From an uncultured Gammaproteobacteria bacterium (GTDB lineage: Bacteria > Patescibacteriota > Microgenomatia > UBA1406): a stretch of DNA of 64,000 nucleotides. Location of the stretch: assembly GCA_964414145.1 (NCBI GenBank), contig CAYPVH010000001.1:220851-284850 (forward strand), written 5' to 3'. Below the pieces are notes generated by a model that did not search any database, had not been told where the DNA came from, and saw nothing but the letters and a program-made list of their open reading frames with translations. The translations under genes and the position numbers were made by a program. How positions within the stretch are numbered: the first letter of the stretch is position 1; each line of letters opens with the position of its first letter. Positions 1,045-49,189 of this stretch are shown here, piece after piece.

Positions 1045-1344
1045 TTAAATATTTTTTAATGTTCTTTTAAGAATTTGTTTTAGCTGATCTCTGCCAAAGC
1101 CGGATTTCAAAAATACTTCTCTAGCTTTAGCATCAGCTTTATTGATGAAGTATTCGTAATGAATAAGGCTGAAAGGAGTACGTAGACGGGTAGATTTAAC
1201 CTGATTTTTAGAGTGTTGAGTTAGACGTATTTTTAAATCGGATGTAAAACCAATATACAAGCCTTTATCTCTTAAAAAATACAAAACATAAACATAATAC
1301 TTGTGATTGCCGTAAGAAGGAATAGAAACGTCTAACGTTTCCAT
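1045..1344 (-). CDS. GIY-YIG nuclease family protein (small, URI-domain only), copy 1
   Basis: Motifs YYVYVLY…GLYIGFTSDLKIRLTQH…E match GIY-(x10)-YIG + R + H + E. The start is moved to the ATG at 1344 because the track ORF's extension (to 1488) overlaps the tmRNA 3' end and hairpins. TATAAT lies 9 nt before the ATG and there is no SD. Confidence 0.75.
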   Translation of the reverse strand: METLDVSIPSYGNHKYYVYVLYFLRDKGLYIGFTSDLKIRLTQHSKNQVKSTRLRTPFSLIHYEYFINKADAKAREVFLKSGFGRDQLKQILKRTLKNI

Positions 1345-1370
1345 GTATTTATTATTATATAAAAAAGATG

Positions 1371-1387
1371 GGGGCGTCAAACGCCCC
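1371..1387 (-). terminator. Rho-independent terminator of ssrA
   Basis: On the minus strand the sequence reads GGGGCGTTTGACGCCCC followed by CATCTTTTTT. It is the third of three GC-rich hairpins after the tmRNA. Confidence 0.6.
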
Positions 1388-1395
1388 TCGCTTAA

Positions 1396-1455
1396 GCCAC
1401 GTTTGACGTGGCTTACAAACGCTGTTTCATTATGGTAGAACCGCGTTTGACGCGG
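1396..1455 (-). repeat. Two further hairpins in the tmRNA trailer sharing the same loop (CCGCG-TCAAA-CGCGG and GCCACG-TCAAA-CGTGGC)
   Basis: Read directly from the sequence at 1441-1455 and 1396-1412. The first hairpin begins at the CC that follows the tmRNA discriminator base. Confidence 0.7.
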
Positions 1456-1837
1456 TGGAGATGCCCGGAGTTGAACCGGGGTACACAAAAAGTAAGCCCT
1501 AAAGATTTTATAGCAAGTTTAGTTCAACAATAAAGTTAAACAGTTTTAAGACCGTTTGTGTTTCGGCGCCCGTAGGTAGGTCTTTTCCCGGTTTGCCAAA
1601 GCCGAAAGGTTTGCACTAAATACAGCTATCGGCGTCTGCTGTACTTAATGTCCCGCCAAGCGGGAAAAGCTGTTTACGCAGTTGCATAAGCAAAACGGTT
1701 AGCAAAAGCTCCCGCTTGCATAGCTTCTAGGTATTCAGCTTCTTCTGCGTCATTATCTGCAGTTGTTTTTCCTGTTTTACGGACAAGTCCGACCTGCAAT
1801 CTTTAAAGCACAATTTGTGGCAAAGCCCGTCATCCCC
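1454..1837 (-). ncRNA. ssrA: tmRNA (SsrA), one-piece
   Basis: The 5' end GGGGATG pairs with CATCTCC at the 3' end, giving a G3:U70 pair. The T-arm is CCCGG-TTCAACT-CCGGG, followed by discriminator A and CC. An internal reading frame ends …GCT AAC CGT TTT GCT TAT GCA ACT GCG TAA (…ANRFAYATA*). The gene is immediately downstream of smpB. Confidence 0.85.
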
Positions 1838-4152: not shown

Positions 4153-4683
4153 TTAGTCATCTACGTACTCAATTATCTTGTCTACCACCTTCTTGGGTGG
4201 TGTATTGGTATTATCTATATTTAAACTCTTTTTGTAGGGAATGGTGGCGGTCAAGTTATATTTTGTAAATAACTCCTCAAGTATTTCGGCCTTATTGATC
4301 TTGTTGGTTGTTTGCCTGGACTTATTTGTAACTCTTTTAAATAGTTCTTTTTTAGAACAATTCAATTTAATAAAAATTACTTTTCCACCATTGTCTTCAA
4401 CCGCACTAATTACTCTTTCAATAAAATCATTATCTACATTACCTCCATAAACAAACGTGAAAATTACACCTTTTATATTCGATAAGGCTGCTTCGCCAAA
4501 TAGGGTTATTCTAAACTGTTCATTAAGTTTTCTAAATTGTCGACTACCAAAATCAAAAACGGCATTTACTAGATCAACTGTTAAATGATTATGAAACAGT
4601 TTATAACCGGTTCGTTCAGATAATAATTTGGCAACTGTTAATTTGCCTGAAGCAGGCGGGCCATAGATAAATATTAGTTTCAT
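4153..4683 (-). CDS. P-loop kinase/ATPase-like protein
   Basis: Walker A motif IYGPPASGKLTVAK at the N-terminus. At 176 aa it is the size of a small nucleotide or antibiotic kinase-like protein. Confidence 0.5.
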   Translation of the reverse strand: MKLIFIYGPPASGKLTVAKLLSERTGYKLFHNHLTVDLVNAVFDFGSRQFRKLNEQFRITLFGEAALSNIKGVIFTFVYGGNVDNDFIERVISAVEDNGGKVIFIKLNCSKKELFKRVTNKSRQTTNKINKAEILEELFTKYNLTATIPYKKSLNIDNTNTPPKKVVDKIIEYVDD

Positions 4684-4701
4684 AAAAGCAATTTTAGCAA
4701 A

Positions 4702-6399
4702 CTAATCAGTTATAACTTTATTGCCAATAACTTTTATAGCCACAAATATAAGTCCAACAAAACTTAAAACCGTTATTAGGTTTCCCAGTTTTTCAATGTT
4801 TGTTTGTCTGTAAATAATTGTTATCCCTGCCGGCTTTGTAAGTATTATTTTCGGTCGCCCCAGCTTGTCGAATGTTGTTGGCGTTACTTCTTTATTGTTA
4901 ACCAAAATCTGCCAATAGGGAAAGTAGTGAATGTTTATAAAAATCGTTCCTTTTTCTTTAATAACTACTTGTTTTTCAAAAACTTCGTTTTTTAAAACTT
5001 TAAACTTTGCTTTTGTAGTAACGGGAAGTTTTGTATTAAGCCTCAGTTTACGATAATTGCTTGTTTTTCGATTAAGAGTGGCCCAGTAAGGGTAATCTGC
5101 TTTACTGCTGATGTATTCGGGCATCATATAGGCCATATCTTTGGTGCGATACTCGTACGAGTCAAATTTTTGGTTATAAGCAGAAAACTTATACATCGGT
5201 TTAATTAAGTATTTTCGGGCGGTAACAAAACTAACAATAATTAAAAAAAGAATGGCAATATTTTTGAAGGGCATTTTTAATTTCTCAAAAAAATAAGCTC
5301 CTAAATAGGCGCCACCAAACATGGCAGACAGCATAAAGCGCCAAGGGAATTGGAAGAGCGCTACAATGGGCGAAAACAAATCCCAAATTGGTTTTGAATA
5401 ACTTGTTGTCATGAATAACGAGCCCAAAAACAACAAGGCAATGAAAATAGTTATTTTTGTGTTTGTGTCTGTTTTCTTTTTTAACAAAACCTGCAAAGTA
5501 ACCGGTACCAGCCCCAAAATTCCCAGTAAAAAGTGAATTTTTCCCAACTTAAAACTCATCATATCGCCTTCGCAGCCTGGCAGTGACGGGCCAAAGAACC
5601 AACCATTTGAAGACCAAAATTGCTTAATACAAAGAAAATGGTCGCCATAATAGTAGTTGCCAATTATGTTTTTGGTTTGGGTAAAGCCGGTCTCAAATAG
5701 GGCCGGCAGTAAAAAATAAGCCCCTAAACCCAGCCCAAAAAATATTGCCGCCAAATTCCTCTTTTTGTTTTTCAGGAGCAGTGAAAAAACAATTGTTAAG
5801 GGCAAAGCAAGCAGTGAAAAAATGTTATGAACTGTAAACAAAGCAAACAACGAAAGACCGGTTAAGAAGAACATTGATTTGGAGGCGGCACGCGAATTTT
5901 CAATTAGTAGTGCCAAGCAGAGGGGCAGTAAGGCTAAAAACCAAACTTCGGCCAGGTTACCCCGGATCATAATTTCGGTGGCAAAATAGGTGGAAGTAAC
6001 ATATAAAGTGGCCCCCAGCAAACTGGGCAAATAACTAAAATTTCTTTTTAAAAAATAAAACATTGCTAAATAACTACCAACAAATGCGGCAAAAAAAGAA
6101 AATTTAAGTGCAGCAACCGTACTTAAACCAATAAAGCTAAGAGCTGCAGTTAACCAATAAGCAAGTGGGGCGTAGAAGTTAAACAAAGGAAAGCCCAAAT
6201 TAAAAGATAATTCGGGTGCTAACCGCGGCGGTAACTGGTCTTGTTTTAAATTAAGAACAAACTGGTGTACCCGAGCCAGTTGGGTTTCGTCGTGAAAATC
6301 AAACATCTGCCCGCCGAGTGGGTTTAAAGAAGGCAGGCAAATATAAATTAGCAAACCCAAACTTAAAGCAAATAGCAACTGTTTAAATCTGTTTTTCAT
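4702..6399 (-). CDS. Large polytopic membrane protein, probable glycosyltransferase-C-fold or YfhO-like
   Basis: Has about 12 or more hydrophobic helices and a soluble C-terminal domain. The start is set at MKNRFKQLLF (ATG 6399), just after the stop of the upstream gene. Confidence 0.45.
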   Translation of the reverse strand: MKNRFKQLLFALSLGLLIYICLPSLNPLGGQMFDFHDETQLARVHQFVLNLKQDQLPPRLAPELSFNLGFPLFNFYAPLAYWLTAALSFIGLSTVAALKFSFFAAFVGSYLAMFYFLKRNFSYLPSLLGATLYVTSTYFATEIMIRGNLAEVWFLALLPLCLALLIENSRAASKSMFFLTGLSLFALFTVHNIFSLLALPLTIVFSLLLKNKKRNLAAIFFGLGLGAYFLLPALFETGFTQTKNIIGNYYYGDHFLCIKQFWSSNGWFFGPSLPGCEGDMMSFKLGKIHFLLGILGLVPVTLQVLLKKKTDTNTKITIFIALLFLGSLFMTTSYSKPIWDLFSPIVALFQFPWRFMLSAMFGGAYLGAYFFEKLKMPFKNIAILFLIIVSFVTARKYLIKPMYKFSAYNQKFDSYEYRTKDMAYMMPEYISSKADYPYWATLNRKTSNYRKLRLNTKLPVTTKAKFKVLKNEVFEKQVVIKEKGTIFINIHYFPYWQILVNNKEVTPTTFDKLGRPKIILTKPAGITIIYRQTNIEKLGNLITVLSFVGLIFVAIKVIGNKVITD

Positions 6400-22535: not shown

Positions 22536-22546
22536 TGTTTTCTCTG

Positions 22547-22651
22547 AGCGGTGGACGAGACTTCCCAGAACATTCTGTTCTGGACCAGTCCCGAACTTAT
22601 AGTTCGGGGGAACTCGTGACCTGTCGCCTAGGGCGACCATTCTACCCAACT
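22547..22651 (-). pseudogene. 5'-truncated, diverged tRNA copy (tRNA-Gly-related) with a 46-nt insertion in the T-loop
   Basis: It aligns to tRNA-Gly from the D-loop to the 3' end (…AAGTTGGGTAGAATGGTCGCCCTAGGCGACAGGTCACGAGTTC[46 nt]AAGTCTCGTCCACCGCT). The last 19 nt are identical to tRNA-Gly. No 5' acceptor strand is present. Confidence 0.7.
22564..22609 (-). mobile_element. 46-nt palindromic mini-element (two hairpins, termini CCCCGAAC…GTTCTGGG) interrupting the T-loop of the tRNA copy
   Basis: The minus strand reads CCCCGAACTATAAGTTCGGGACTGGTCCAGAACAGAATGTTCTGGG, lying between TTC and AAGT of a TTCAAGT T-loop. Confidence 0.55.
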
Positions 22652-22653
22652 TG

Positions 22654-22726
<73 letters not shown>

Positions 22727-39677: not shown

Positions 39678-39971
39678 CTATTCTACGGAATATGCGTTCT
39701 GGACTAGAGATTTTAGACTTTCTTTAAGCATTATTCTCAAAGTCTTCTTACCGCAAGTGGTTTTGAAGTACTTTTCTCTTCTTGTTGCATCATGTTTTGA
39801 ATAGAAGAATTCACAAAACAGTAGTGTGAACGGTCTTCGAAAAGAAGTAGCCAAAGAGTGACCGTTGACATGGGCAGTTAATCTGTTGTGAAGATTTGTT
39901 GTATAGCCAATATAGAAACACTTATCCTTTAAACTATACAATACGTAAACACAATACTGGAGTTTCTTCAC
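39678..39971 (-). CDS. GIY-YIG nuclease family protein (small, URI-domain only), copy 2
   Basis: Motif YCVYVLYSLKDKCFYIGYTTNLHNRLTAH…E. The track start (TTG at 40004) lies inside a hairpin, so the in-frame GTG at 39971 is preferred. TATAAT lies 9 nt upstream and there is no SD. Confidence 0.7.
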   Translation of the reverse strand: MKKLQYCVYVLYSLKDKCFYIGYTTNLHNRLTAHVNGHSLATSFRRPFTLLFCEFFYSKHDATRREKYFKTTCGKKTLRIMLKESLKSLVQNAYSVE

Positions 39972-39993
39972 AATACTATAATTATAGACGTTT

Positions 39994-40078
39994 TTGACTC
40001 TCAAGAGTCAAGTAGTGTAGTGAAGTAGAACAGCAGTTCGCTTCACTACCATGAAGTCAACTGCGTTGTACTTCATGG
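39994..40078 (-). repeat. Three consecutive hairpins filling the tRNA-Tyr to GIY-YIG spacer
   Basis: The minus strand reads CCATGAAGT-N12-ACTTCATGG (40049-40078, starting with the tRNA CCA), then TAGTGAAG-N15-CTTCACTA (40018-40048), then TTGACTC-TTGA-GAGTCAA (39994-40011). Confidence 0.75.
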
Positions 40079-40161
40079 TCCAGGGGGATGGATTCGAACC
40101 ATCGAAGACTAATGTCAGCAGTTTTACAGACTGCTCCGTTTGGCCACTTCGGTACCCCTGG
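40076..40161 (-). tRNA. tRNA-Tyr (anticodon GUA), class II long variable arm, CCA encoded
   Basis: CCAGGGG-TA-CCG…CGG-A-GCAGT-CTGTAAA-ACTGC-(14-nt variable arm)-GATGG-TTCGAAT-CCATC-CCCCTGG-A-CCA. Confidence 0.9.
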
Positions 40162-40174
40162 GATGTGGGTTTTA

Positions 40175-40292
40175 TCCCAGAAGTAGCTTTTTCGCTACTG
40201 CGAAATTAGCACTTCGGGATCCCGTATTTCTACGCCAAATTCTATCATAAATTAAGGGATTTTATCAAAAATTTGGCTAGAAAGTACTGGGA
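40175..40292. mobile_element. About 118-nt structured mini-element bounded by TCCCAG…CTGGGA, between tRNA-Tyr and its decayed 5'-half copy
   Basis: The plus strand starts TCCCAGAAGTAGC…(inner hairpin TTTCGC-TACT-GCGAAA)…GCACTTCGGGATCCCG (40175-40224). A second hairpin GCCAAATT-N-AATTTGGC follows. The element ends AAGTACTGGGA at 40292. Confidence 0.5.
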
Positions 40293-40327
40293 CAGACCCG
40301 TGCGTTAGGCCACTCCGCCACCCCTGG
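40293..40327 (-). pseudogene. Diverged copy of tRNA-Tyr nucleotides 1-34 (5' half only)
   Basis: The minus strand reads CCAGGGG-TG-GCG-GAGTGGCCTAA-CGC-A-CGGGT-CTG and is then joined to TCCCAG. The D-stem differs from the intact gene by compensatory changes (GCG/CGC versus CCG/CGG). There is no 3' half. Confidence 0.7.
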
Positions 40328-40597: not shown

Positions 40598-40945
40598 ATG
40601 TATTCTTTTGAAAAACTTAAGGTTTGGCAAAAGTCTTTAGAGTTAATCAAAGACATATATCGTACGTGTGAAGAATTGCCAAAACAAGAAAGAACAAATT
40701 TAATAGACCAGATAAAAAGAGCGGCAACATCAATAAATTTAAATATTGCCGAAGGCGGTGGGGCAGAAAACAAGAAAGAAAATAAAAGATTTTTATATAT
40801 GGCAAGAAAATCTCTTTATGAAGTAGTAGCAATATTGTTAATTATTGAAAGGCTATACAAAATAGATATAACTAATCAAAGAAAGCAAGTTGATGAAGTT
40901 GGTAAAATGCTTAACGGGTTAATAAAGAGTTATAGTATAAGTTGA
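40598..40945 (+). CDS. Four-helix-bundle protein of the 23S rRNA intervening-sequence (IVS) / Avd-like family
   Basis: Carries FEKLKVWQKSLELIKDIY…LIDQIKRAATSINLNIAEG…RFLYMARKSLYEV, the signature of the S23-ribosomal/IVS-protein family. Confidence 0.8.
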   Translation: MYSFEKLKVWQKSLELIKDIYRTCEELPKQERTNLIDQIKRAATSINLNIAEGGGAENKKENKRFLYMARKSLYEVVAILLIIERLYKIDITNQRKQVDEVGKMLNGLIKSYSIS

Positions 40946-45328: not shown

Positions 45329-47059
45329 ATGTTATTTTTTACGCTTGCTCAAACCCTGGATTTTCTTGAAAATACCGTATCCCGATTGGAAATGACAGAG
45401 CTTTTAGCTACCCTATTTCAAAAAGCCACACCTACCGAAATTAAAAATATCTGTTATTTACTTCAGGGTAGGGTAACCCCACTTTACAAGAAACAAGAAT
45501 TTGGTATGGCAGAAAGGCTGGTATTAAAAGCCTTTGTTTCGGCTTTTTCACTTAATATTCAAGATGCCAGAAAGCGATATAAAACAATTGGTGATATTGG
45601 TAAAACTGCCGAGGAATACCGAAAAACGTCGCAAAGCTTATTTCAAACTGCTGACGACTTGGAAATTGATCAAGTTTTTAAAGAATTAGTAACTCTTTCA
45701 CTGCTTGAAGGTGTGGGTTCGCAAGACAAGAAGATAGCGATTACCACTAATTTGTTACAAAGCTTGCGACCGGTTTCAGTACGTTTTTTAACCAGAATAC
45801 TAGCTGGGAAACTTCGGCTTGGTTTTTCAGAAATGACTTTGCTAGACGCATTTTCCTGGATGCTAATTGGTAATAAAAGCCTAAGAAAAAAAATAGAACA
45901 AGCATACAATGTTTTTCCCGATATTGGATTTATTGGGCAAAAACTAAAGGCTGGCGGGATTGAATCTATTAGTAAAATTGAACCGGTTATTGGTATTCCT
46001 ATACTAATGGCTAAGGCCGAGAGAGTGTCAACTCCAGAAGAAATAATCGAAAAAATTGGGGAATGTGCGGTTGAACCAAAATTTGATGGTTTTCGACTAC
46101 AATTGCACAAAGATCATGACAAAATTACCATATATTCTCGAAATTTGGAAAATATTACTTTTATGTATCCTGATTTGGTCGAAGCCATGAAAACAGAAGT
46201 GAGCGCAGATAGGGTAATTATAGAAGGCGAGGCGGTTGGTTATAACAAAGAAACGCAAGAATTTTTGCCATTTCAAGAAACGGCACAACGGAAAAGAAAA
46301 TACGACATTCAAAAATATAGCAAAGCCATTCCTTTAAAACTGTTTGTTTTTGATCTGCTTTATATAAATAACCAGTCATATATCAATAAACAGTATACAG
46401 AAAGAAAAGCCAAGTTAGAGTCTGTTGTAAGGAATGGTACAGCAATAATATCAATAGCCAAAGAACAAATTGTTAAGCATCCACAAGAACTTGTAGCTCT
46501 TTTTGAAAAGGCTAGTGAAGAAGGGTTGGAAGGGGTAATCGCAAAAAAATTAACTGGACTGTATCAAGCAGGGGCGAGGGCTTGGAACTGGATCAAATTT
46601 AAGCATAGTTATTCTTCTAAATTAACCGATACAATCGATTGTTTGGTAATGGGTTATGACTATGGCAAAGGTAAAAGAGCAGTTTTTGGCATTGGCGCTT
46701 TTTTAGTTGGCGTTTACAATAAAGAAAAAGATGAGTTTGTAACTGTAGCAAAAATAGGTACTGGATTAACTGACGACGAATGGCGTCGAATAAAAAAAGA
46801 AGCTTATGACCAACGGCTTACAAATAAACCGGTCAATTATATTGTTAATAAACAAATGGAAGTAGATGTTTGGACTAGTCCCAAAATTGTTGTAGAAATT
46901 AGGGCAGACGAAATATCAAAATCAACTGTTCACACTGCCGGATACGCTCTGCGATTTCCTCGACTAGAAAGATTCAGAACAGACAAGAAACCAAACGATA
47001 TTACCACCAAAATAGAAATTATTTCAATGCTTAAAGCACAGAAGCGACTTTCATTGTAG
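45329..47059 (+). CDS. ATP-dependent DNA ligase (archaeal/eukaryal type)
   Basis: Adenylation motif I EPKFDGFR, motifs EGEAV, LFVFDLL and EGVIAKK, and an OB domain with ALRFPRLERFRTDK. Confidence 0.85.
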   Translation: MLFFTLAQTLDFLENTVSRLEMTELLATLFQKATPTEIKNICYLLQGRVTPLYKKQEFGMAERLVLKAFVSAFSLNIQDARKRYKTIGDIGKTAEEYRKTSQSLFQTADDLEIDQVFKELVTLSLLEGVGSQDKKIAITTNLLQSLRPVSVRFLTRILAGKLRLGFSEMTLLDAFSWMLIGNKSLRKKIEQAYNVFPDIGFIGQKLKAGGIESISKIEPVIGIPILMAKAERVSTPEEIIEKIGECAVEPKFDGFRLQLHKDHDKITIYSRNLENITFMYPDLVEAMKTEVSADRVIIEGEAVGYNKETQEFLPFQETAQRKRKYDIQKYSKAIPLKLFVFDLLYINNQSYINKQYTERKAKLESVVRNGTAIISIAKEQIVKHPQELVALFEKASEEGLEGVIAKKLTGLYQAGARAWNWIKFKHSYSSKLTDTIDCLVMGYDYGKGKRAVFGIGAFLVGVYNKEKDEFVTVAKIGTGLTDDEWRRIKKEAYDQRLTNKPVNYIVNKQMEVDVWTSPKIVVEIRADEISKSTVHTAGYALRFPRLERFRTDKKPNDITTKIEIISMLKAQKRLSL

Positions 47060-47070
47060 AATAGATAATT

Positions 47071-47790
47071 ATGACTTCATTTTCGATATTGACACATAAT
47101 CTATTATTTGGCCAAGCAATAGATAGTTTGGTTATCTATCTAAAAAAATATAAGCCAGAAATAGTTTGTTTACAAGAATTTAAAGTAGAACCTGAAGAGA
47201 TTGCTAAAGTAGAAAGTTGTGGTTATAAATTAGCTGATTATTCCCATTCTTTTTTTCGTATGTTTAAATTTTACTCTGTTGCTACTTTTTATAATCCAAA
47301 AATTGTTAAACATAAAAATGGTGAATCATTAAGTTTGGCAAGTGGAGCGTACGAAGTCTTATTATATTTACTAAAAGTTAGTAAAACTAAAAGAACAGCA
47401 CTTAGTAATAAATTTATACTTAGAAATGGGAAAACCATTAATGTATGCAATCTTCACTTAACTCCCCTAACCGGAACAAACAAAACTCGAACAAAACAAC
47501 TTACTTCAACTCTTAATCACTTTCACTCAGAATCTAACAGATCGATTATTGTTGGTGATTTCAATTTTCCTTATAGAAGAAAAGCTCTAGAGAAAATATT
47601 TTTTGATAAAGGTTTTAAAGAGGCAACAGATAATATCTTCTATACTTATAAGGAAAAATATTTTGGATTATTTACTTTTAAGGGTAAATATGACTACATT
47701 TTTTTTAAAGGGGTTAATAAAAAGGGGTTAATTAGATTAGCTCAAAACAACTCAGATCATTTTCCGCTTCTTGCTAAATTTACAGTTTAG
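47071..47790 (+). CDS. Endonuclease/exonuclease/phosphatase (EEP) family protein
   Basis: Carries CLQEF near the N-terminus, VGDFNF, and C-terminal NSDHFPLLAKF. Confidence 0.7.
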   Translation: MTSFSILTHNLLFGQAIDSLVIYLKKYKPEIVCLQEFKVEPEEIAKVESCGYKLADYSHSFFRMFKFYSVATFYNPKIVKHKNGESLSLASGAYEVLLYLLKVSKTKRTALSNKFILRNGKTINVCNLHLTPLTGTNKTRTKQLTSTLNHFHSESNRSIIVGDFNFPYRRKALEKIFFDKGFKEATDNIFYTYKEKYFGLFTFKGKYDYIFFKGVNKKGLIRLAQNNSDHFPLLAKFTV

Positions 47791-48129: not shown

Positions 48130-48343
48130 CCTAGTTATTCTGAATTGTACTAAATTAGATTTTTTTGTCAAATTAATTTTACTCAAAATATTCCTATTCT
48201 TATTATTGTAGGTATCGTTATTGACCAGTTAAGAACGAATTTTGTTTACGCTCTTAATCGGTAGACTTTGTCTCGCCGTAGCCGAGCTTCAGCGAGGCGA
48301 ACCCTGCTTTCGCTTTTATCAGGCGGACTTTGTCTCGCCGTAG

Positions 48344-48681
48344 ATTGTAAATTCGCCCGCCGTATTCGTGAACTTAGTATTTGAAAAAATGTTTCTTCAT
48401 AAACGCCCTACCAGAACCAGACTTTAAATATTTTTCAAATTTAAAAGCTGTAATTTCTTTATCAAATGCAAAGTATAGTTTCAGAGCTACTGGTGTTCTA
48501 TTTTTGGTTGCCTCAATGTAATTACTGTTATGCATTTGTAATCTGTCTTTTAGGTTATTTGTACATCCAATATATGTTCTGTTGTCATTACAAATAAGAA
48601 CATAAACGTAGTACATGGAATAATTGTAGCGGATTTGTATCGCTAAGCCTCAATAAATTTTGACTTTTTTTAGACAAAATT
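48344..48681 (-). mobile_element. 338-nt cassette carrying GIY-YIG copy 3, inserted in the loop of a repeat-unit hairpin
   Basis: Its boundaries are defined by where unit 2 departs from units 1 and 3 (after TTCGCCTC and before CTACGGCGAGAC). It contains a 5' hairpin GCCTCAAT…ATTGAGGC, a TACAAT box, the ORF and a 30-nt 3' tail. Confidence 0.55.
48374..48616 (-). CDS. GIY-YIG nuclease family protein (small, URI-domain only), copy 3
   Basis: MYYVYVLICNDNRTYIGCTNNLKDRLQMHN…E. TACAAT lies 6 nt before the ATG and there is no SD. Confidence 0.7.
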   Translation of the reverse strand: MYYVYVLICNDNRTYIGCTNNLKDRLQMHNSNYIEATKNRTPVALKLYFAFDKEITAFKFEKYLKSGSGRAFMKKHFFKY

Positions 48682-48753
48682 GAGGCGAATCCCGCTTTCG
48701 CTTTTATCAGGCGGACTTTGTCTCGCCGTAGCCGAGCTTCAGCGAGGCGAAGG

Positions 48754-48839
48754 CGGAGGAGGTGGGATTTGAACCCACGTGAGCCAAAAGGCTCGCAGGT
48801 TTAGCAAACCTGTGCAATGGACCACTATGCGACTCCTCC
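48754..48839 (-). tRNA. tRNA-Ser (anticodon GCU), class II
   Basis: GGAGGAG-TC-GCA…TGC-A-CAGGT-TTGCTAA-ACCTG-(17-nt variable arm)-GTGGG-TTCAAAT-CCCAC-CTCCTCC-G, followed by CC. Confidence 0.9.
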
Positions 48840-48856
48840 AATGAACCTGCCTTTTA

Positions 48857-48862
48857 ATTATA
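48857..48862 (-). promoter_or_regulatory. -10 box (TATAAT) for tRNA-Ser(GCU), duplicated at 49068-49073
   Basis: On the minus strand TATAAT is separated from tRNA nucleotide 1 by 17 nt. The same hexamer sits in the 85-nt duplicate. Confidence 0.4.
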
Positions 48863-48889
48863 ACCCAAAGCCCCTTTCGGTTTAGTCCC

Positions 48890-48979
48890 GAAAAACTTTC
48901 TCAACGGAACGTTGAGATTAGTTTTCGGGATCCCGAAGTACTAAACCCGATGAGTTTCATCGGGAAGTTACTTCTGGGA
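48890..48979 (-). mobile_element. 90-nt structured spacer or mini-element between the two copies of the tRNA-Ser 5' region
   Basis: The minus strand reads TCCCAGAAGTAAC-(hairpin CCCGATGAAACTCATCGGG)-TTTAGTACTTCGGGATCCCG, then the hairpin GAAAAC-TAATCTCAACG-TTC-CGTTGAGAAA-GTTTTTC. Its ends resemble those of the tRNA-Tyr and tRNA-Gly elements. Confidence 0.55.
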
Positions 48980-49100
48980 CAAACCTGTGCAATGGACCAC
49001 TACCTGCCCGCATTGCTATGCAAAGCGTTGCAGGCGGGTGCGACTCCTCCAATGAACCTGCCTTTTAATTATAACCCAAAGCCCCTTTCGGTTTAGTCCC
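48980..49100 (-). pseudogene. Duplicate of the promoter plus tRNA-Ser(GCU) nucleotides 1-34, with a 36-nt insertion in the D-loop
   Basis: Identical over 85/85 nt to 48805-48889 apart from the insertion at 49003-49038 (plus strand cctgcccgcattgctatgcaaagcgttgcaggcggg). It ends after G34 and joins TCCCAG. Confidence 0.75.
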
Positions 49101-49189
49101 TTATAACTTTCTTAGCACAGATATTATACTAAATGGAATAGTCACACTTAAGTGAAAATTAACTTAATTGTATTCCGTATAATAAGTTT

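Follow-up and report, generated by a model that had tools for sequence, protein, structure and literature searches.

The DNA analysed here, a 64,000-nt stretch of contig CAYPVH010000001.1 (hereafter the window), carries an intact tRNA-Tyr gene and, just upstream on the same strand, a second, diverged tRNA-Tyr copy that is interrupted by a 118-nt sequence containing two hairpins, which we term H (Table 1). The 5′ part of the diverged copy, CCAGGGGTGGCGGAGTGGCCTAACGCACGGGTCTG on the minus strand, shows 27 of 35 identities with nt 1-34 of the intact gene. It is the sole second match of at least 27/35 to the 5′ part of tRNA-Tyr in the window, and five shuffles gave none. This bears out a preliminary description of the DNA, which had reported the copy and the TCCCAG that directly follows it. 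An extended -10-like sequence (TGATACAAT) lies just upstream. The D stem of the copy is intact and reads GCG/CGC as against CCG/CGG in the live gene, and the compensated change noted previously is thus read directly in the sequence. The rare C1 start, the intact D stem and an anticodon stem that is complementary to the copy's own 3′ remnant support the earlier view that a different, genuine tRNA-Tyr allele gave rise to the fragment.

What could not be maintained is that the copy ends at position 34. Directly after H the tRNA resumes with nt 35-43 (TAAAACCCA), and the stem strand ACCC of this remnant forms four of five pairs with GGGT of the 5′ part, as against two of five with the stem of the live gene (GCAGT/ACTGC). 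The fragment therefore comprises nt 1-43 with an insertion between positions 34 and 35. H sits exactly between G34 and T35 without target duplication, and joining the flanks of CTG-H-TAAAA gives the full loop CTGTAAA. The dead copy is truncated just past the anticodon stem and lacks the 3′ half. The live gene begins 13 nt past H, and the 118 + 13 nt between the two copies contain no open reading frame (ORF).

Folding of the H region as single-stranded DNA gave -32.3 kcal/mol (z = -4.8; 0 of 200 shuffles as stable), the predicted structure being a three-way junction with two long hairpins closed by the anticodon stem. The boundaries TCCCAG...CTGGGA and the presence of two hairpins are therefore as first described; the hairpins are, however, not a spacer between duplicates but the conserved element itself. 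Hairpin 1 was confirmed as the reverse-complement homologue of the first hairpin in the spacer of the tRNA-Ser(GCU) locus. The enlarged loop of hairpin 2 contains a TG-extended, promoter-like TTGATA-18-TAGAAT (10/12; minus strand, 40239-40268) directed at the intact tRNA-Tyr, and from this sequence H may supply the promoter of the live gene.

Table 1. Coordinates of tRNA genes, tRNA remnants, H copies and GIY-YIG genes in the window.
Feature	Position	Strand	Basis
Dead tRNA-Tyr (allele A), 5′ part: nt 1-34, acceptor 5′ strand to G34	40293..40327	-	sequence match to live gene
H at tRNA-Tyr, 118 nt, TCCCAG...CTGGGA	40175..40292	+ (orientation hairpin 1 to 2; antisense to tRNA)	fold, covariance model, family pattern
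Hairpin 1 of Tyr H, TCCCAGAAGTAGC...GCACTTCGGGA	40175..40219	+	fold; homologous to Ser hairpin 1 at 48979..48931
Hairpin 2 of Tyr H, TCCCGTATTTCTACGCC...GGCTAGAAAGTACTGGGA, enlarged 28-nt loop	40220..40292	+	fold
Dead tRNA-Tyr, 3′ remnant: nt 35-43, directly after CTGGGA	40166..40174	-	completes anticodon loop, pairs with 5′ part
Spacer CATC, 4 nt, remnant to live gene	40162..40165	-	sequence
Intact tRNA-Tyr(GTA) (allele B); C1-G72, long variable arm, encoded CCA	40076..40161	-	ARAGORN; Rfam tRNA, 55 bits
Partial tRNA-Ser(GCU), 5′ part: nt 1-12 (49050..49039) and nt 13-34 (49002..48980)	48980..49050	-	identical to intact gene
36-nt GC-rich hairpin splitting the Ser 5′ part in the D loop	49003..49038	-	sequence
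H at tRNA-Ser(GCU), 94 nt, between G34 and C35 of the upstream partial copy	48886..48979	-	covariance model R1, 79.7 bits
Ser 3′ remnant CTAAACC: nt 35-41 (48885..48879), with 39-nt upstream region	48840..48885	-	39 nt recur at 49089..49051
Older H tail AGAAAGTTATAAGGGA and another CTAAACC, far-left end of Ser locus	49090..49112	-	sequence
Intact tRNA-Ser(GCT)	48752..48839	-	ARAGORN, Rfam
tRNA-Gly remnant: nt ~44-56 (22622..22610), mini-H (22609..22563), nt 57/58-74 (22562..22546)	22546..22622	-	window-tRNA BLAST
Intact tRNA-Gly, upstream of the Gly remnant	22653..22726	-	
Small GIY-YIG nuclease gene, ~100 nt downstream of tRNA-Tyr	39678..39971	-	Pfam PF01541, E = 1e-15
Second small GIY-YIG gene, downstream of tRNA-Ser(GCU)	48374..48616	-	Pfam PF01541, E = 4.9e-14
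Third GIY-YIG gene, directly after tmRNA gene	1045-1488	-	Pfam scan

The window contains three copies of H, at tRNA-Tyr, at tRNA-Ser(GCU) and, in degenerate form, in the T loop of a tRNA-Gly remnant. The junction of G34 with TCCCAG is shared by the Tyr and Ser loci, as had been stated before (at Ser, 48980/48979), and at Ser too the tRNA resumes after the insert, here with nt 35-41. The Ser locus includes a direct repeat of 74 nt (96% identical) that extends into the region upstream of the gene. This repeat, the older H tail and the additional CTAAACC identify the Ser locus as a tandem array formed at the DNA level.

The Gly remnant was located by a BLAST search of all window tRNAs against the window. 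Its insert is a 47-nt miniature of the two-hairpin design, and the 3′ piece of the remnant is identical to the intact gene. The match to the covariance model described below is weak (10.6 bits, E = 2.9), the assignment to H being made by architecture and by the TCCCAG / TCCCGAA feet. A perfect palindrome, GTCGCCCTAGGCGAC, occurs at 22623-22637 (minus strand), at the expected anticodon arm of a decayed second tRNA-Gly; judging by its sequence, a further hairpin insertion may have left it as a scar.

Comparison of the copies gave a common plan, TCCCAG AAGTA...stem-loop...TACTTC GGGA followed by TCCCG...stem-loop...C(T)GGGA, the two halves being joined at the palindrome CGGGATCCCG. H is thus a pseudo-two-fold-symmetric pair of bulged hairpins with terminal inverted repeats TCCCAG(A/T)AGTA at both ends; together, these hairpins and the arm stem of the flanking tRNA make up a three-way junction. 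Public collections were searched with an exact 23-base pattern (TCCCAGAAGT-N15-45-CTTCGGGATCCCG), which returned 26 loci in species-representative genomes and 88 in metagenomes. The viral contigs scanned with the same pattern gave 0 matches and hence no indication of a phage origin. All informatively named genome records belong to Patescibacteria of the candidate phyla radiation (CPR), namely Roizman-, Gottesman- and Levybacteria, Microgenomates and Paceibacterota; seven records labelled ‘uncultured Gammaproteobacteria’ were taken as mislabels. By its best BipA relatives, at about 75% identity, the window too is Roizmanbacteria-like. From these loci 111 H copies were parsed, of which 68 are non-redundant.

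Every one of the 68 copies abuts tRNA sequence at the anticodon, D or T loop. In the anticodon loop the insertion lies between positions 34 and 35 (Tyr, Cys, Ser GCT) or 35 and 36 (Thr, Ser CGA/TGA, Glu); D-loop sites were found in Pro and Ala, and T-loop sites, between positions 55 and 56, in Leu, Val, His, Gly, Asp, Ala, Pro and Thr. In total, tRNAs of 27 anticodons are affected. The loop nucleotides are all accounted for in 68/68 copies, i.e. there is neither duplication nor deletion of the target. On the top strand of H, nearly all copies have a G as the last base of the 5′ flank, often as part of YTYG; the exceptions are the two Tyr loci, in which H appears flipped, and the degenerate Gly copy, which is not a clean fit. 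A site-specific process, as opposed to random duplication, had been proposed from two loci and is supported by these data, but the restriction to the anticodon loop that went with it is not, given the sites in the D and T loops.

A covariance model (R1) was built from 34 H copies. It scored 79.7 bits on the Ser copy and 61.2 bits on the Tyr copy, with 46 and 40.1 bits on the respective opposite strands, which is explained by the pseudo-two-fold symmetry. When applied to 560 kb of fetched loci, R1 identified additional matches in L018, L037 and L056, all of them diverged copies inside or next to tRNA genes. Both searches that had been suggested, for further tRNA fragments joined to the motif and with a covariance model, were hence productive, the former with more than 100 further cases in relatives. 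No Rfam family was found on H, either at the gathering threshold over the whole window or at E up to 5 at the Tyr locus. The literature searched, which did not extend to subscription-only papers, held no published description of H.

The metagenome origin of the assemblies is the sole point in favour of a chance resemblance or an assembly artefact. Over 100 independent assemblies, produced by many different projects, show the architecture; the window is matched exactly by three independent contigs; and neither the tRNA match nor the fold has a counterpart in shuffled sequence; we therefore discount this explanation almost entirely.

An intact tRNA was nested in or adjacent to H in 64 of the 68 non-redundant copies, and most of the other four appear to be contig ends or genes missed by ARAGORN. 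In the nested arrangement, found for Thr, Cys, Pro and Glu, the outer 5′ part is followed by hairpin 1, the left arm of hairpin 2, a complete tRNA, the right arm of hairpin 2 and the outer 3′ part. In silico removal of H from 27 nested copies restored an outer tRNA that was detectable by ARAGORN and had the anticodon of the cargo. About half of the nested outer genes are intact once H is removed. The adjacent arrangement applies to Ser, Tyr and all T-loop cases, including the Tyr, Ser and Gly loci of the window. Here a long part of the old gene is followed by H, by 7-10 nt completing the loop and the arm stem, by a spacer of 1-43 nt, and then by the intact tRNA. The cargo or neighbouring tRNA is always co-oriented with the interrupted copy, regardless of the direction of H. 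The proposal that one of the two tRNA copies was brought in by an element is thus supported for the nested cargo tRNAs of the relatives; for the Tyr locus of the window we only infer it.

In most informative adjacent loci, the short remnant pairs with the stem of the pseudogene and not with that of the live gene. The old part, H and the remnant hence represent one coherent older gene. A model in which the element carries the adjacent tRNA, with the rest of the old gene lying beyond, was rejected because no such remainder is present beyond the intact tRNA in most adjacent-type loci. A second model, in which a circle consisting of H, the short remnant and a 5′ half enters the loop, is disfavoured since it predicts pairing of the remnant with the live stem, contrary to what is seen.

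The same layout can be read as the product of integrases, the partial tRNAs being attL/attR-type duplications of deleted integrase elements and H a hitchhiker in the dispensable att copy or a remnant of the element. Anticodon and T loops are indeed the classical crossover sites of tRNA-targeting integrases, and the T-loop layout, with an intact tRNA, a short spacer and nt 49-76, is formally classical. L004 (~230-300) would also fit: here a tRNA-Ser(CGA) copy cut short to nt 1-43 and free of H separates the intact gene from a copy bearing H. This means that either precise excision of H is possible or truncated copies arise without H. However, no integrase gene or element body was present between the repeats in the loci read through, where, over 12 or more tRNA species, spacers measure 1-43 nt. 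The pairing of the remnant with the pseudogene stem (in the window, 4/5 versus 2/5) contradicts a crossover in the loop, duplications of 5′ parts (nt 1-43) differ from what known integrases leave behind, and nested and three-layered loci cannot arise in this way. We consider an att origin very unlikely.

Several loci point to repeated invasion. In L017 (1-340) three layers are found, with a tRNA-Cys in H, in an older tRNA-Cys, in an outer H, in the 3′ part of a still older tRNA-Cys, which implies that each invasion struck the gene that was active at the time. Outer and cargo tRNA-Pro in L013 are 100% identical and the Ser repeats of the window are nearly so, indicating recent events. In L018 the outer and cargo tRNA-Thr(GGT) differ throughout, both being well formed; in L005 and L022 the two differ only by fully compensated acceptor-stem pairs, and the outer copy of L016 has the acceptor stem found in the cargo of L005. 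These cases speak for foreign cargo and thus for events that were in part horizontal. For tRNA-Tyr the alleles are crossed between loci: the window pseudogene is nearest to the functional gene of L012 (29/35), and the live gene of the window is nearest to the L012 pseudogene (30/35), the type of D stem included. The distribution is patchy, five other CPR tRNA-Tyr genes having no H upstream.

A C1-G72 first pair of tRNA-Tyr is an archaeal/eukaryal identity element. Among the fetched loci, C1-G72 in bacterial tRNA-Tyr was limited to the H-bearing Tyr loci (window and L012). The other CPR tRNA-Tyr genes in these loci do not have C1, and all but that of L055 start with G.

The stems of H were examined for the level at which they are constrained. 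Compensatory changes on both sides were seen for 17 of 32 predicted pairs. On the transcribed strand, about 2700 Watson-Crick pairs are accompanied by 16 mismatches of the G:U type and 20 of the A:C type. In a functional RNA helix, G:U pairs are expected to be many and A:C few. The lack of a G:U excess, i.e. Watson-Crick-only pairing that is the same on both strands, therefore points to DNA hairpins or a cruciform rather than RNA. With respect to transcription, H is in sense orientation in 40 and in antisense orientation in 28 of the 68 copies; the argument from orientation against an RNA function is weakened by the pseudo-symmetry of H, and the count of G:U versus A:C was used in its place. 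On these sequence grounds a DNA-level element is favoured.

The alternative would be an intervening or processing element acting in RNA, comparable to the intervening sequences of 23S rRNA or the tRNA introns of archaea, that would be transcribed along with the tRNA and used by the host, for instance an RNase III stalk around the cargo or a leader or trailer, and conserved for that function. This would account for the constant co-linearity of H with the tRNA transcription unit, for the strong sequence conservation and covarying stems, and for a hairpin 2 that encloses the cargo tRNA in the manner of an rRNA processing stem; the nested outer genes that are intact after removal of H are also in line with it. 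Moreover, Patescibacteria tolerate tRNA introns between positions 35 and 36, the group I introns described at this site in a paper that makes no mention of H (PMC13011429). The mismatch counts and the occurrence of both orientations speak against a function in RNA. In the window and in all adjacent loci the interrupted copy is missing more than half of the tRNA, so that splicing could not rescue it, and the intact tRNA beside 64/68 copies, matching wherever the anticodon is readable, would be needless if H were harmlessly removed. H matches no Rfam family or ribozyme and is too small for a group I intron, whose core and splice-site features it lacks. Taken together, we regard an RNA-level role as rather unlikely.

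Known classes of inserts were also considered individually. Group I introns have a catalytic core of >200 nt, a U at the 5′ splice site and a G at the intron 3′ end; H has 47-118 nt, is preceded by a G, has A as its last base and gave no Rfam intron match at E up to 5, and this identity was rejected. An archaeal-type intron with a bulge-helix-bulge motif was discarded as well, since the tRNA-Tyr copy of the window stops at nt 43 and a complete tRNA cannot be restored. A miniature inverted-repeat transposable element of the DDE type would agree with the terminal inverted repeats, but no target-site duplication was found at any junction examined.

The explanation we lean towards is that the feature at the Tyr locus is a tRNA-Tyr pseudogene (nt 1-43) carrying, between G34 and T35, a conserved Patescibacteria insertion element that is structure-dependent and specialised on tRNA genes. 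H would be, or have been, a non-autonomous DNA element recognising folded or cruciform DNA and integrating into the single-stranded loops of tRNA-gene DNA. Insertion would kill the tRNA gene, and would be survived only where a functional copy of that tRNA was supplied as well. The old gene would then decay to the arm stem that clamps H, and repeated invasion of the active copy would generate Russian-doll nests and tandem arrays. An element with a tRNA in hairpin 2 could invade only the matching gene, a match that may be set by selection rather than by recognition. The absence of target duplications suggests a chemistry as used by an HUH-type single-strand transposase or a recombinase. Such a transposase, provided in trans, is one candidate catalyst; the small GIY-YIG nucleases whose genes follow the Tyr and Ser genes are another.

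A number of observations weigh against this explanation. The junction expected of an excised circle or a tandem (CTGGGATCCCAG) occurs nowhere in the fetched DNA, nor did the analysis bring up an autonomous H copy or a close relative with an empty site. The three same-species contigs, reached through the neighbouring gene for the IVP protein, are 100% identical to the window and uninformative for an empty site; the flanking HAD hydrolase protein had no match in the collection, and the closest BipA relatives (~75% identity) show no conserved synteny. Among the 20 ORFs scanned around the three loci there was no transposase, recombinase or integrase. The mobility of H is thus deduced from its distribution and nesting. 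Its very high conservation across deep CPR lineages would equally suit a host function. Because the base of hairpin 1 is fixed in the search pattern, the sample is skewed to one subfamily and diversity is under-sampled. Lastly, the explanation does not account for the origin of the adjacent architecture, whose boundary is sharp, with only 7-10 nt of the old gene facing the intact tRNA. In 12 or more tRNA species this boundary falls at the base of the clamp stem, which suggests either that the clamp matters to the element or that rescue duplications or deletions end at the base of a stable hairpin. Such rearrangements could stop there by template switching or by breakage at the palindrome.

Two further hairpins were found within tRNA genes. 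The 36-nt GC-rich hairpin of the Ser locus (CCCGCCTGCAACGC..GCATTGCGGGCAGG) constitutes a second mini-element, 32/36 identical between the window and L016 (~5907-5942) and present in L070 (~2183-2222), L106 (~4775-4814), L057 (~527-566) and L007 (~4661-4700). In several of these loci it sits in the D loop of tRNA copies that are already interrupted, the tRNA context in L057 being a different one. In L052 (~2330-2590) a distinct single hairpin (CCTTGCCCCGCCACCTTT...AAAGGTGGCGGGGTGAAG) encloses a complete tRNA-Thr(GGT) within the D loop of an outer tRNA-Thr, so that the nesting of tRNA within tRNA extends beyond H.

It is conceivable, though we would say so only tentatively, that H, the 36-nt hairpin and the L052 hairpin together represent a new class of hairpin-guided DNA elements, which enter folded tRNA-gene loops with a replacement tRNA in the hairpin loop. 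This would amount to a tRNA ‘addiction’ or gene-replacement drive, with an enzyme that is possibly novel and maybe of the GIY-YIG type. If so, each invasion would kill the resident tRNA gene and make the cell dependent on the cargo tRNA, which would explain both the nests and the crossed alleles and would entail a continual turnover of tRNA genes in CPR bacteria. We see a real, if smaller, likelihood that the mechanism of H is categorically new. H itself is apparently an undescribed, target-specific, non-autonomous insertion element.

Comparison with known systems shows partial likeness to several. Fujishima and colleagues are said to have described, in 2010, transposing tRNA introns of Thermoproteales, with related introns at non-canonical positions of many tRNA genes. 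H resembles these as a set of related short inserts in the anticodon, D and T loops of many tRNAs, implying movement between genes. The Thermoproteales introns, in contrast, are removed by the bulge-helix-bulge splicing endonuclease, so that their genes stay functional and no backup copy is needed, while H is bacterial, its host copies are often truncated, its stems are Watson-Crick-only, and a replacement tRNA accompanies it in 64/68 cases.

With PATE (derived from IS200/IS605) and with the REP/BIME (REPIN) doublets, H shares small size, lack of coding capacity, bulged hairpins, duplication-free insertion and, in nearly all copies, a position 3′ of a short motif. All are structure-dependent and plausibly use single-stranded DNA substrates, PATE and REPIN being mobilised by HUH Y1 transposases. 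They differ from H in that the feet of the H hairpins are the element ends, which are symmetric rather than distinct left and right ends, and in that the target is a tRNA loop and the cargo a whole tRNA gene in the hairpin loop. No TnpA or RAYT was present among the 20 window ORFs scanned. The elements of tRNA-targeting tyrosine integrases use the same sublocations within tRNAs, bring along what they destroy and leave direct repeats of partial tRNAs. H loci, unlike these, have no integrase or element body; whole tRNAs or 5′ parts rather than 3′ parts are supplied, and H sits inside the leftover copy and nests in up to three layers. The intervening sequences of 23S rRNA are likewise extended hairpins in loops of structured-RNA genes, with a sporadic distribution and an obscure insertion mechanism. 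A further point of likeness is a gene for a PF05635 ‘23S rRNA-intervening sequence protein’, 440 nt away (40598-40945). The rRNA intervening sequences are excised by RNase III and the rRNA functions in pieces, whereas a tRNA cut between positions 34 and 35 cannot, and its gene is replaced.

Should H be mobile, it would be a bacterial element with tRNA-gene loops as its niche, in which the lethality of insertion is solved by shipping a spare tRNA. Large integrative elements are known to live in this way; non-coding ones of 90-170 nt are not. Mobility would also explain odd tRNA fragments and ‘duplicate’ tRNAs that are missed or mis-called by annotation pipelines in CPR genomes, and would provide a route to rapid horizontal turnover of tRNA alleles in minimal genomes. 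Such events can be searched for by the marker CGGGATCCCG flanked by TCCCAG...CTGGGA. The enzymological question is what cuts and joins DNA at the hairpin feet and in tRNA loops without duplication. Processing of H in RNA would instead make it a bacterial intervening sequence of a new kind.

Among the neighbouring genes, those for GIY-YIG nucleases deserve attention. The three in the window lie directly 3′ of tRNA-Tyr, tRNA-Ser(GCU) and the tmRNA gene; those behind the two tRNA genes encode proteins of 80-110 aa that consist of the catalytic domain alone. The gene behind tRNA-Tyr has its own promoter-like site at 40004..39975. Free-standing GIY-YIG endonucleases of the SegB type occur in phage tRNA clusters (PMC2330249, PMC13096335). 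The cleavage sites of SegB, a homing endonuclease of phage T4/T6, lie within tRNA genes, and its action causes a tRNA-Tyr segment to be amplified in a recombination-dependent manner (PMC13096335). The window shares with such systems GIY-YIG genes next to tRNA genes as well as the tandem amplification of tRNA segments, that of tRNA-Tyr among them. It differs from SegB modules in that SegB is a full-length protein with a DNA-binding region and that SegB systems have no conserved hairpin insert. The parallel is suggestive, and the GIY-YIG nucleases are predicted candidate partners of H.

These genes might also be the actual driver. On this view the enzyme is a free-standing homing endonuclease of the GIY-YIG type, encoded in linkage with the intact tRNA. 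It would cut tRNA genes, repair of the break would copy or amplify the linked tRNA segment, and the remnants with H would be immune, non-cleavable leftovers or products of repair. Besides the precedent of SegB, such a scheme could draw on the linkage to tRNA genes, with 9 of 12 non-redundant GIY-YIG ORFs in all fetched DNA lying within ~100 nt of a tRNA or tmRNA gene, and on the live Tyr gene being a different allele from the remnant. Linkage to H is another matter, as a GIY-YIG ORF lies within 250 nt of H in only 4 of >110 fetched loci, a figure that is weak either way because many contigs are short. The small proteins of the window have no DNA-binding domains as found in true homing endonucleases. 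The scheme leaves unexplained why a conserved palindromic sequence of 90-120 nt should lie at the break, and why hairpin 2 carries cargo. Furthermore, the arm of the intact copy often does not differ in sequence from that of the interrupted one (L005, L022), and the intact copy would then not be immune. A GIY-YIG-driven origin therefore appears unlikely.

The GIY-YIG gene behind tRNA-Ser is flanked by direct repeats of ~70 nt (TTCGCCTCGCTGAAGCTCGGCTACGGCGAGACAAAGTCCGCCTGATAAAAGCGAAAGC..., 48682-48751 and 48255-48343, minus strand) and may, to judge from them, itself be a cassette. A related TTCGCC...GGCGAGAC hairpin, with the similar motif at 1881-1908, occurs upstream of the tmRNA gene. From the CCA end of tRNA-Tyr onwards (40018-40078, minus strand) there are two more hairpins with a GAAGT/ACTTC core, CCATGAAGTAC...GACTTCATGG and TAGTGAAG...CTTCACTA. 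They match the H model weakly (12 bits, E = 1.5) and may be a degenerate H-like unit or a terminator. A gene for a ‘23S rRNA-intervening sequence protein’ (PF05635, a four-helix bundle) is located at 40598-40945, 270 nt from the Tyr pseudogene and between tRNA-Cys and tRNA-Ser(TGA). At 45329-47790, in the interval separating the Tyr from the Ser locus, a nuclease of the Exo_endo_phos family is encoded beside an ATP-dependent DNA ligase of 576 aa, a pair possibly relevant to end-joining repair.

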